Below are positions 41,141 to 55,280 of a stretch of 64,000 nt of DNA, piece by piece (the first letter of the stretch is position 1; every line of letters begins with the position of its first letter). The position numbers were made by a program, and so were the translations under genes. The notes below the pieces were generated by a model. That model ran no database searches. It had not been told where the DNA came from and saw only the letters and a list, made by a program, of their open reading frames with translations. Origin of the DNA: Clostridia bacterium (lineage in GTDB: Bacteria > Bacillota > Clostridia > TANB77 > CAG-508); the NCBI GenBank assembly GCA_045593405.1, contig JAZNWN010000015.1:8395-72394 (forward strand). The letters are read 5' to 3'.

Positions 41141-41170
41141 TTTGTATATAAATGCTTCTAAGATTTTGTA

Positions 41171-41228
41171 AAAGAGCCCCTTTAATAAGGGGGCTGTCAC
41201 CGCCCAGGTGACTGGGGGTTCTTTTTTT
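41171..41228 (+). terminator. tandem hairpin rho-independent terminator after the rluA-family gene
   Basis: AGCCCC-loop-GGGGGCT is followed by CCCAG-GTGA-CTGGG and then TTCTTTTTTTT. Confidence 0.6.
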
Positions 41229-41326
41229 TATGTCTTAAGAACCCTCCGTCAGCCATCGGCTGCCACCTCCCTTGTTAAAGGAGGTTTCTTGCATATCCTT
41301 CGTAGCATTCTTTTTTAATTAATTCA

Positions 41327-42313
41327 CTATAATCTTCTTATCAATTTATCGTGTACATTTTCAAAAAATATCTTTCGTATTTCGTGTTCAGAAAAAACAT
41401 TTTCTAATAATAACTTTTCTATTCTATGTTTTACCTCTTCTTGTTTAAACACATTCATGTTTTGGTAAATTTCTGGCTGTATTTTATAATAGCTCATATC
41501 GTCTGTTGCAACTGCAATATTATTTACATCTCCAAATAGTCTTTTTAAGTAGTTTATATGATTTACATATGCTATTTCATAATCTGAATTATTATAACTA
41601 CTGCAAAAATCTTTTACAGAAACAACTCCAACTATTCCATCTAATTTTTTTATTTCTAATAGCTGTCTATCTGTTAAGTTCCTAGGCACATTACAATATC
41701 TTTTGCTATTTGAGTGTGATGCAAATACAATGGGGTCTAAACCTTTTTGTTTTAGCTCATTACATTTATATATAATATCGTAAAAAGTTTTCTCATTTGC
41801 ATGTGATAAATCTATTGCAATTTTTTTATTAACTAATTTTTCTACAAGCTGTTCTCCTAAGCTAGTCAATCCTTCTGTGTTTTCCCCTCTTAACCCCGCT
41901 CCAAATTTGTTTTTATTATTCCAAACTATTCCTGTAGTTCTTAACCCTAAATTATATAATATATCAATATCATTTATATCTTTTAAATAATCTAGTCCTT
42001 CTATTCCAATTAAGTATTTAATGCGGTATGGGATTAGCCTATATCTTCTAATTAGAGAATTTACAATTTTTAAATTTTGAATAATATCAATTTCACTTGG
42101 TTGTATACTTAGTTCATCATACATTTCTTTTTCAGACATGTAAAATAAATTAAAAATACCACCTGTAATATTATTATTAAATATTTTTCTGCAATGAGAA
42201 ATTACTGGTCTCAAATCTCTTCTATTCATATAAATATATGTAAGTAAATCGTAATGACAATCAAACATAAAATCACCATTGATAGTATATGATAATGGAA
42301 TAAAAATGTTCAT
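41327..42313 (-). CDS. membrane dipeptidase (peptidase M19 family)
   Basis: The GLRTTGIVWNNKNKFGAG...IDLSHANEKTF blocks are typical of the renal-dipeptidase family. Confidence 0.8.
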   Translation of the reverse strand: MNIFIPLSYTINGDFMFDCHYDLLTYIYMNRRDLRPVISHCRKIFNNNITGGIFNLFYMSEKEMYDELSIQPSEIDIIQNLKIVNSLIRRYRLIPYRIKYLIGIEGLDYLKDINDIDILYNLGLRTTGIVWNNKNKFGAGLRGENTEGLTSLGEQLVEKLVNKKIAIDLSHANEKTFYDIIYKCNELKQKGLDPIVFASHSNSKRYCNVPRNLTDRQLLEIKKLDGIVGVVSVKDFCSSYNNSDYEIAYVNHINYLKRLFGDVNNIAVATDDMSYYKIQPEIYQNMNVFKQEEVKHRIEKLLLENVFSEHEIRKIFFENVHDKLIRRL

Positions 42314-42404
42314 ATAACTTTAACTTATTATATTTATAATTTGCTCTAAACTGCTATAAAATTTGCATATTTTTGCAAATTATGGTATACTTATAAGTAA
42401 TATA

Positions 42405-42702
42405 AGGCGGAAGTCTTATTGTTAGCATATCCCAAAAAATAATTTTAAAGGAGAAAGAAAAAAATGGCAGACTACATTTGTAAAGCATCCCCCTTCAAGG
42501 CAAGCAGTTGTGACGGTAATTGCAGCCGTTGCTCATCAGCACACAAAAATGCTTATGCACCTTCTGCCCCTCGAGCAGAAGACACAACTATGATTCCTTC
42601 CTATTACTGGCCCTTCACCACAAATGAGGACCGCAAATCCGGAAGGGTCCAGACCTTCTAAGCCATTCCTCCCGCTAGATAAAAGCGGGAGGGTTTTCTT
42701 TA
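42405..42702 (+). other. GC-rich structured element of about 290 nt (candidate ncRNA), or a 65-aa Cys-rich ORF (42464-42661) with atypical GC-rich codons
   Basis: A TTGCAA-N17-TATACT promoter-like box lies near 42375-42403. Several nested stems are present, for example CTTCTGC...GCAGAAG and CTGG(CCCTTC...GAAGGG)TCCAG. It ends in the terminator CTCCCGC-TAGATAAAA-GCGGGAG followed by a T-run. A strong AAAGGAG RBS precedes the ATG at 42464. Confidence 0.35.
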
Positions 42703-42824
42703 ATTTATTATTAATTTTAATTGCCTTAGTGGATAATTAATATTTAAAAATGAATAGTGAATAATACCAAATGTGCTCCTTTCTAAATTGAGCTCATTAT
42801 TCACTGCAACGAAGTCGCACATTT

Positions 42825-42945
42825 TGGCTGGGGTGGGAGGTCCGGCAAGCCGCGTCAGAAAAAATGTCCAGTGGACATTTTTTACCTGCGTTTCGGCAGG
42901 CCTTAACCTGCTCGAAACTTGGCAACTTCCTTTTCGAATCCTCCC
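42825..42945 (-). repeat. tRNA-3'-linked repeat element, copy D (next to tRNA-Gln; long form with extra hairpin)
   Basis: TGGCTGGGGTGGGAGG is shared with tRNA-Gln. The core follows, then the extra hairpin GTTTCGGCAGG-CCTTAA-CCTGCTCGAAAC and the right end CTTCCTTTTCGAATCCTCCC. Confidence 0.7.
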
Positions 42946-42990
42946 TTTTAGTATAATATAAAAAAACCATCTTTTGATGGTTTTTTATTC

Positions 42991-43066
42991 TGGCTGGGGT
43001 GGGAGGATTCGAACCGCCGAAATGCCAGAGTCAAAGTCTGGTGCCTTACCACTTGGCTACACCCCA
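42991..43066 (-). tRNA. tRNA-Gln (anticodon TTG)
   Basis: Reverse complement reads TGGGGTGTAGCCAAGTGGTAAGGCACCAGACTTTGACTCTGG... with an encoded CCA. Confidence 0.85.
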
Positions 43067-43089
43067 ATAATTAGTTTTATATGTGTTTG

Positions 43090-43167
43090 TGGGGTGGAAG
43101 ATGGGACTCGAACCCACGGCCTCTAGTGCCACAAACTAGCGCTCTAACCAGCTGAGCTACACCCACC
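43090..43167 (-). tRNA. tRNA-His (anticodon GTG) with encoded G-1
   Basis: Reverse complement reads GGTGGGTGTAGCTCAGCTGGTTAGAGCGCTAGTTTGTGGCACTAG.... The acceptor stem has one mismatch, and CCA is encoded. Confidence 0.75.
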
Positions 43168-49608: not shown

Positions 49609-49765
49609 AAAACTTCCTTCTATTCTAATTTTACGTTTATTATTTTATCACAATAGGCTTCTTATTACAAGAAAATTTATAAAAATAGTGAATAATACAA
49701 ATGCGCTATTTTCACATCTATATTATTCACTATCATCCCTTTTCTGTGACTGTTAAGTCTAACAT

Positions 49766-54376: not shown

Positions 54377-54627
54377 GGGTTACCTCCTCATTTTATTTTT
54401 ATGCTTTATTTATATTTATAAAACACTGTCTTTTATTATACATTATTTTTGTTTTTTTTACAATACAAATGTTTGAAGAAATTGGAAATCGATTTGACTT
54501 TTTATGTAAATAATTGTATAATTTTTATGAAGTATTTCTTTTGAAGTACACTACCATATTACACTTCAGTAATTTGGTATTAACCTTTAGCAGATTTTTC
54601 TGCTATACAATCTTAGGAGGATTTTAT

Positions 54628-54801
54628 ATGCATCCTTATATGAACTGTGATACATGTGACCCCAAAACAAAAGAAGCATGTAACTATCCCGATACTGGCA
54701 TCTGCGCCAAAGAGGCCACTTTGCCTCCTGCAGTTTGCCCTATGTTTGAGGTTCCTACTAATAGTAACAATGTTGCTGCTAAAGTAGTTGCGCCTCCTTA
54801 A
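54628..54801 (+). CDS. small Cys-rich protein (57 aa)
   Basis: A strong AGGAGG RBS lies 7 nt before the ATG. The product is MHPYMNCDTCDPKTKEACNYPDTGICAKEATLPPAVCP.... A GC-rich terminator hairpin (GGCCTCCC...GGGAGGC, then a T-run) follows directly. Confidence 0.5.
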   Translation: MHPYMNCDTCDPKTKEACNYPDTGICAKEATLPPAVCPMFEVPTNSNNVAAKVVAPP

Positions 54802-54836
54802 AAAGGCCTCCCTTTAGGGAGGCTTTTTTAGTTAAC

Positions 54837-54960
54837 TCTGGTGACCCGTACGGGAATCGGCAAGCCGCGTCAGAAAAAATGTCCACTGGACATTTTTTGC
54901 CTTCGTTTCGGCAGGCCTTAACCTGCTCGAAACTTGGCATCTTCCTTTTCGATTCCCTTC
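54837..54960 (-). repeat. tRNA-3'-linked repeat element, copy E (next to tRNA-Glu; long form)
   Basis: TCTGGTGACCCGTACGGGAATCG is shared with tRNA-Glu. The core and the GTTTCGGCAGGCCTTAACCTGCTCGAAAC hairpin follow, then the right end CTTCCTTTTCGATTCCCTTC. Confidence 0.7.
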
Positions 54961-55106: not shown

Positions 55107-55183
55107 GTGACCCTCACGTATGGTATCGAAGCACGACTTCCACCGTGAGAGGGTAAACGTCTTAACCGCTTGACCAACAGGCC
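55107..55183 (-). pseudogene. degenerate tRNA-Glu-like copy (acceptor stem cannot pair, no CCA)
   Basis: The 5' half is GGCCTGTTGGTCAAGCGGTTAAGACG with a CTC anticodon arm, like the neighbouring tRNA-Glu. The 3' half ...GTGCTTCGATACCATACGTGAGGGTCACA does not complement the 5' acceptor strand. Confidence 0.4.
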
Positions 55184-55280
55184 ATTTATTTTTTGATGTG
55201 TGAAGTGGGATGTAAGAAGTGTGCTTTTTAGAAATCACTTCAAAAACTATTCCTAAATTCGCACTTCAAATTTCTATATA

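Follow-up and report, generated by a model that had tools for sequence, protein, structure and literature searches.

A GC-rich island beside tRNA-Gln in an AT-rich Clostridia genome very probably holds a gene for a small soluble cysteine-rich protein

In a window of 64,000 nt from the genome of a Clostridia bacterium (contig JAZNWN010000015.1), a short GC-rich island lies between a dipeptidase ORF (41327-42313, minus strand) on its left and the genes for tRNA-Gln and tRNA-His, also on the minus strand, on its right. The GC content of the island is 0.48-0.50 overall against 0.29 for the whole window; measured over 200 nt, it is 0.405-0.50 across 42400-42699, compared to a window mean of 0.286 (sd 0.052). 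An initial annotation, made from the letters alone, had singled out the island as a candidate structured RNA that also encodes a Cys-rich ORF, and its description of the setting holds: the island is real, it lies between the opposite-strand dipeptidase gene and the tRNA-Gln/His cluster, and it carries a 65-aa ORF with an AAAGGAG ribosome-binding site, a strong 3' terminator and a codon usage unlike that of its neighbors. The features of the locus are as follows:

42362..42391, plus strand: sigma-70-type promoter with an extended -10 element (promoter scan)
42402..42419, plus strand: 5'-proximal stem-loop AUAAGGC-GGAA-GUCUUAU, a few nt past the predicted transcription start
42447..42453, plus strand: Shine-Dalgarno (SD) sequence AAAGGAG, 10 nt 5' of the ATG
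42464..42661, plus strand: CDS of 65 codons, ATG at 42464, product MADYICKASPFKASSCDGNCSRCSSAHKNAYAPSAPRAEDTTMIPSYYWPFTTNEDRKSGRVQTF, hydrophilic, pI 8.4 (homologues P0003-P0007, dN/dS, open frame, GC3)
42667..42700, plus strand: intrinsic terminator UCCUCCCGC-loop-GCGGGAGGG followed by a U-run, beginning 6 nt past the stop codon (terminator scan)
42703..42823, no strand assigned: AT-rich spacer with the inverted repeat AGTGAATAAT...ATTATTCACT, loop of about 30 nt; context, outside the small gene
42824..42941, minus strand: tRNA-linked repeat that repeats 16 nt of the tRNA-Gln 3' end; context, outside the small gene
42991-43066, minus strand: tRNA-Gln
43090-43166, minus strand: tRNA-His

The island does have a promoter of its own, as first proposed, and only the reading of it as TTGCAA-N17-TATACT has to be given up: the TTGCAA at 42373 is just 7 nt from the -10 element and was thus misread. 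The hexamers are TTTGCA-N18-TATACT, or alternatively TTGCAT-N17-TATACT, and the TG at 42383-42384 (-15/-14) makes this a near-consensus extended -10 promoter; the same architecture is found at the same distance in five of five homologous loci (TTTACT/TTCACT/TTGCAA-17-TGnTATAAT). The stem-loop that follows is kept in all six sequences of the family, where one of its pairs (19:26 of alignment A4) is GU in three, GC in two and AU in one, and it is probably a 5' hairpin that stabilizes the mRNA. Translation signals are conserved as well: an SD sequence lies 8-11 nt 5' of the ATG in every sequence, as AAAGGAG in five of the six and as TAGGAGA in the remaining one (L089/L090). At the other end of the transcript, the terminator stem (42667-42693; 10 bp, seven of them GC pairs, then the T-run) is present in six of six loci, and four of its pairs retain pairing despite changes on both sides, e.g., ACCCUC/GAGGGU in L083. 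The promoter, the 5' hairpin, and the SD-ATG and stop-terminator spacings are constant in six loci whose flanks are unrelated.

The borders of the island show further features of their own. As called, the dipeptidase ORF starts at 42313 (328 aa), but an alignment with a syntenic relative (L003) suggests a start at 42268, at a Met 15 codons downstream (MFDCHYDLL...), which would widen the intergenic region. Between the end of this ORF and a pseudouridine-synthase-like ORF lies a GC-rich stretch of 187 bp (41141-41328, GC about 0.39) with several hairpins. It is absent from L003 and 75% similar to L009 7103-7263, a segment that immediately follows ychF in that locus, and could represent a further small element, mobile or structured. 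The AGTGAATAAT...ATTATTCACT element of the spacer, which here follows tRNA-Gln and separates the repeat from the small gene, occurs a second time in the window downstream of tRNA-Thr (about 49685-49745), and positions 42726-42780 are 87% identical to L083 6577-6630, which is downstream of tRNA-Thr in that genome.

Homologues and the reading frame

How widespread is the 65-aa protein? An exhaustive HMMER search (phmmer) against 1.84e9 cluster representatives returned P0003 (E 8e-20, 67% identity) and P0004 (E 5e-17), and a profile search built from these three sequences added P0005-P0007. The five distinct homologues, 58-67% identical to the window protein, come from other low-GC Clostridia assemblies (contigs L082-L092, locus GC 0.22-0.39), so that the family has six distinct sequences among about 15 billion proteins. 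They were recovered at the protein level only, and by exhaustive HMMER only: a word-indexed search of 5.8 billion proteins with the single sequence gave no homologue, blastn of the island against 80 ychF-syntenic loci gave no match, and phage and plasmid collections gave AT-rich noise only. Peptide-pattern scans of IMG/VR and JGI metagenomes, with the single sequence and with the profile, yielded no confirmed match, a weak negative because these scans missed JGI contigs later retrieved by exact look-up. In the protein collection, the 241-kb source contig is represented by YchF, the dipeptidase, HisS and a second small ORF discussed below, whereas the 65-aa product is absent; the ORF was missed in the source annotation. 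A literature search found no description of the protein family or of the tRNA-linked repeat.

Alignments of the window sequence with its five homologues, by codon and as transcripts, bear directly on what the island encodes. The mean pairwise difference at codon positions 1, 2 and 3 is 0.25, 0.22 and 0.42: third positions vary most, a protein-like pattern which argues that the island is protein-coding and against the RNA gene that had been put first. Nei-Gojobori dN/dS is 0.15-0.64 (median about 0.28) in 14 of the 15 pairs, with dS saturated in the one remaining pair, and dS between family members is 0.5-2. All gaps are whole codons, keeping indels in frame; frame 0 is free of stops in six of six sequences, while each other frame has 1-8 stops, and a frame would stay open by chance in one composition-matched shuffle with a probability of 0.057. 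Twenty-one columns are invariant, among them C6, C16, C20 and C23. As judged from these alignments, the protein sequence is under purifying selection across six diverged homologues.

We therefore consider it very probable, on comparative sequence evidence, that a small soluble cysteine-rich protein is encoded here by a monocistronic gene standing on its own, and that the island is not an RNA gene; the third-position pattern, the open frame and the in-frame indels agree with the option of a small Cys-rich peptide gene that the initial annotation had listed last. The family is new and uncharacterized, but the kind of gene is otherwise ordinary. In AT-rich genomes, intergenic regions high in GC are a known source of both ncRNAs and small ORFs (PMC6429828). 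The 'sORF' category of GC-IGRs (Stav et al. 2019, PMC6429828) matches the present case: a long intergenic region in a genome of low GC contains a GC-rich island which, when homologues are compared, turns out to consist of an RBS and an ORF, with the terminator stem as the only clearly conserved structure. Unlike the members of this category, the window family is not among the named motifs as far as these can be checked, and its excess of GC at third codon positions persists at near-saturated synonymous sites.

The cassette and the tRNA-linked repeat

The distribution of the cassette, i.e., the gene with its promoter and terminator, was followed in relatives fetched through YchF. In the closest, L001 (YchF 95%), tRNA-Gln is followed by a plain terminator, and neither the repeat nor the cassette is present; in L003 (93%), the repeat is present, but about 47 bp replace window positions 42296-42823 and the cassette is absent; in L083 (85%), both are present, in the same order as in the window and at the same tRNA-Gln/ychF position. 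The horizontal acquisition first suggested is only partly borne out: the distribution is patchy and tRNA-adjacent, but it does not reflect a recent arrival, as the window and L083 share 78% DNA identity over 42357-43069, a divergence similar to that of ychF and the flank.

At every locus with a visible downstream flank, the cassette converges on a tRNA 3' end, that of tRNA-Gln in the window and L083 and that of tRNA-Trp in L082, L088 and L092, which suggests that it has moved between tRNA-downstream sites over evolutionary time. Could it be the cargo of, or a leftover from, a small mobile element with tRNA genes as its integration sites? In L092, the cassette lies between a presumed tRNA-Trp (the contig ends as the tRNA begins) and a 47-nt copy of its 3' half, a layout resembling attL/attR; in L088, the cassette terminator runs directly into the right half of the tRNA-linked repeat; and in the window and L083, the cassette adjoins this repeat, which duplicates a tRNA end. 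However, no integrase, transposase or recombinase was seen in or beside any copy of the cassette; in the window and L083, the 16-nt tRNA-Gln duplicate leaves the cassette outside, and the flanks show no second copy of tRNA-Gln; the equal divergence of cassette and flank implies long residence; and no match was confirmed in the IMG/VR, phage and plasmid collections. On balance, mobile cargo is unlikely as an account of the cassette, and it would be compatible with the protein gene as to the encoded product.

The repeat itself forms a family with five copies in the window, each following a tRNA operon, just past the terminator of the operon's final tRNA (Leu, Tyr, Phe, Gln and Glu). Near the last copy lies a second GC-rich small gene (54494-54830), which converges on tRNA-Glu and abuts the repeat. 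The coordinates are:

24341-24440, 30561-30635, 34860-34935, 42824-42941 and 54828-54957 (plus-strand coordinates), read in the tRNA sense on the minus strand: tRNA-linked repeat copies
L003 7370-7471 and L083 1974-2095: tRNA-linked repeat in relatives
54628-54801, plus strand: ORF2, 57-aa Cys-rich product MHPYMNCDTCDPKTKEACNYPDTGICAKEATLPPAVCPMFEVPTNSNNVAAKVVAPP, called in NCBI as P0001
55003-55077, minus strand: intact tRNA-Glu
55107-55185, minus strand: degenerate tRNA-Glu-like copy just upstream of the intact gene, uncalled by ARAGORN and Rfam

Every copy of the repeat duplicates 12-22 nt of the 3' end of its own tRNA, from the T-loop or T-stem to the CCA, and its other end is an inverted T-loop piece, GGAWTCGAA. 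Common to the copies are an invariant GACGCGGCTYGC block and a bidirectional-terminator hairpin in which three pairs show compensatory changes; long and short forms exist, and in L003, near-identical terminators stand on either side of the element. The repeat has no match in Rfam, and its invariant motif has none in IMG/VR. Minus-strand ORFs that run through the repeat were rejected as coding because the long and short copies place them in different frames. An integrase scar, a miniature integrative element and a long target duplication are all candidates for its origin.

ORF2 has signals of its own, a TTGACT-17-TATAAT promoter, an AGGAGG site and a terminator, and a GC3 of 0.33. In its homologue P0002 (L081), all five Cys within the shared first 41 codons are kept, with seven synonymous and nine non-synonymous codon changes over these codons by hand count. 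Homology between the 65-aa protein and ORF2 was rejected (hhalign probability 0.4%).

Two GC-rich insertions in relatives are absent from the window: L083 2230-2335, between tRNA-Gln and tRNA-His, with the 5' end of tRNA-Gln repeated inside it, and L001 1960-2140, between ychF and tRNA-His. They are further signs of a highly plastic tRNA neighborhood.

GC-rich synonymous sites and RNA structure

If the island is a plain protein gene, why are its synonymous sites so rich in GC? The CAI of the window gene is 0.278 against 0.72 +/- 0.05 for reference genes, and its GC3 is 0.48 against 0.13, which bears out the unusual codon choice remarked on at the outset; from host codon usage, the expected GC3 is 0.156 (z = 8.5). 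The excess is a family trait: GC3 is 0.33-0.55 in the family and 0.07-0.18 in the hosts, and every homologue has 2-5 times the host level at a dS of about 1. High expression was rejected as its cause, since GC3 is 0.10-0.15 in PFL, infB and nusA and 0.07-0.21 in all other genes of the window. With synonymous sites near saturation and the window and L083 genes positionally orthologous, the excess is judged to be maintained and not a relic of recent transfer. Here the protein-gene explanation reaches its limit, as it leaves the high GC3 unexplained.

A dual-function RNA, translated and at the same time acting as a structured regulatory or unusually stable transcript, would account for the GC-rich synonymous sites through selection on RNA structure. 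The native CDS folds more stably than its synonymous-codon shuffles in six of six members (z -0.9 to -2.9; -2.1 to -2.9 in four of them), and RNAalifold would join the segments that code for CDGNCS and TIVPS in a long-range helix (90.7% of cells paired, four pairs with two-sided changes), a result equaled by 0-14 of 500 shuffles. Yet the consensus energy is better than that of column-shuffled alignments by a narrow margin (z -1.6 and -1.8), with 14-24 of 300 equaling or bettering it, the covariation term for the six transcripts is just -0.27 kcal/mol, with clear support for the 5' hairpin and the terminator only, and Rfam offers no match. Moreover, the paired segments encode the most conserved residues of the protein, so their conservation may be protein-driven, and six related sequences give little statistical power to a shuffle control that over-calls. 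Taken together, these comparisons faintly suggest selection for mRNA structure or stability at the GC-rich CDS; the proposal that the island is a structured RNA which also encodes the ORF thus survives in a weak form, as a distinctly improbable reading.

SR1P of Bacillus, a Cys-rich protein, is the natural comparison for such a transcript. In Bacillus subtilis, it is the 39-aa product of SR1, a dual-function sRNA, and binds GapA (PMC10730256). Like SR1, the window gene would give a free-standing transcript of roughly 200-300 nt with its own promoter and terminator and a small protein product. It has no sequence similarity to SR1/SR1P and no Rfam SR1 match, and the proteins of the window family, at 61-65 aa, exceed SR1P in length and differ from it in their Cys pattern.

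A non-coding structured RNA with a fortuitous ORF, be it 6S-like, raiA-like or of a new class, was the leading idea of the initial annotation and could appeal to the high GC of the island in an AT-rich genome, to its separate promoter and terminator, and to a whole-transcript fold z of -2.7 (terminator included). But the minus strand folds equally well (z = -2.6), and an Rfam scan, the check proposed along with this idea, identified nothing of the kind: Rfam 15 at the gathering score finds tRNAs only in the whole window, no 6S or raiA, and at E<=10, matches in 42200-43000 are noise, on the terminator and on AT-rich DNA. The three helices on which the idea was built can be drawn in the window sequence but find no backing in the homologues: 74.7% of their cells are paired, a value equaled by 81-295 of 500 shuffles, and there is no covariation. 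The third, nested helix is inconsistent as drawn, because CCCTTC/GAAGGG and GGACC/GGTCC overlap at 42642-42650 and both cannot form; it can be folded as CUGGCCCUUC with GAAGGG(U)CCAG. Protein-like substitutions, a frame kept through in-frame indels and a conserved SD and ATG all speak for translation, and the closest syntenic relatives, L001 and L003, lack the island, which would be odd for a housekeeping RNA. Neither the 6S-like nor the raiA-like assignment finds support, and a non-coding RNA of any class is very improbable.

The protein and its possible role

The preferred reading, a gene for a small cysteine-rich protein, raises the question of what this protein does. The six members are 61-65 aa long and hydrophilic (GRAVY -0.4 to -0.8), with a pI of 8.4-9.3 in five of six, and share the invariant pattern C-x9-C-x3-C-x2-C; no segment hydrophobic enough for a signal peptide or a membrane span was seen. 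Pfam, NCBIfam, PHROGs and PDB sequence profiles and a Foldseek comparison to PDB give no match and the family is tiny, so whatever function we assign to it we purely infer. In an AlphaFold2 model built from the six-sequence alignment, residues 41-65 form a strand-helix-helix-strand module with pLDDT 83-87, while the Cys-rich half is at about 50; the low value might fit a half that folds around a metal ion lacking from the model. The neighbors differ from context to context (the dipeptidase, an unknown 187-aa protein, a peptidase M23, Ger proteins, an unknown 193-aa protein), and no protein-coding neighbor is shared, which marks a stand-alone gene and not a part of an operon or a RiPP cluster. 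A RiPP or bacteriocin precursor, which a short Cys-rich ORF with its own promoter could bring to mind, is hardly tenable with no conserved adjacent maturase, transporter or immunity gene, no leader or double-glycine motif, and conservation over the full length, the folded C-terminal module included.

CsfB/Gin, Fin and similar small Zn-binding regulators of Firmicutes are about 50-75 aa long and have four Cys in paired CxxC motifs, and Pfam has models for CsfB/Gin and Fin. The window protein is likewise a soluble four-Cys product of a free-standing gene in the setting of spore-forming Firmicutes, and one of its homologues adjoins GerAB/GerAC-like genes. It differs in its Cys spacing (C-x9-C-x3-C-x2-C) and in having no Pfam match, and unlike in sporulation-specific regulators, its promoter looks sigma-A type. 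In five of the six members, the CDGNCSxC segment bears a weak local resemblance to the Cys cluster of PF12669, a FeoB-associated Cys-rich membrane protein and the best Pfam hit (E 0.13-0.48); membership was rejected, at 11.2 bits against a 27-bit cutoff and with no hydrophobic segment and no feoB neighbor.

By analogy with other small Gram-positive proteins (PMC10730256), among which SR1P provides a working model for a small cytosolic protein that acts through a larger one (PMC10730256), the family may comprise metal-binding cytoplasmic proteins that act on a partner. The four invariant Cys of the poorly ordered N-terminal half would bind a metal center, either Zn or an Fe-S cluster; the C-terminal strand-helix-helix-strand module (41-65) would contact a partner macromolecule; and the protein would be a small cytoplasmic modulator, much as other small Gram-positive proteins bind larger ones. 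The strong promoter, the 5' hairpin and a GC-enriched, somewhat over-structured CDS would provide an abundant, long-lived mRNA. Metal binding, partner contact and an abundant, long-lived mRNA can be put forward together only tentatively. More speculative still, the GC-enriched Cys-rich genes of the window, i.e., the 65-aa gene and ORF2, could have been captured as cassettes by a so far undescribed miniature element, one that copies the 3' end of the operon-last tRNA, has five copies in the 64 kb and encloses the cassette in L088; alternatively or in addition, the transcript could be a dual-function RNA selected for structure. To these readings we attach a low probability.

The gene set of an uncultured lineage of gut Clostridia gains a conserved small protein that had gone uncalled, and the locus provides a worked example that, in an AT-rich genome, a promoter and a terminator around a GC-rich island do not by themselves make it a structured RNA. 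A GC3 excess at near-saturated synonymous divergence is unusual, and it offers a possible handle on selection for mRNA stability or structure in extremely AT-rich bacteria. The repeats that duplicate tRNA ends may indicate an unrecognized process which shapes the regions downstream of tRNA genes; if element capture or dual-function RNAs were to prove true, the tRNA-downstream regions of reduced gut Clostridia would be a new kind of platform for integration or expression.
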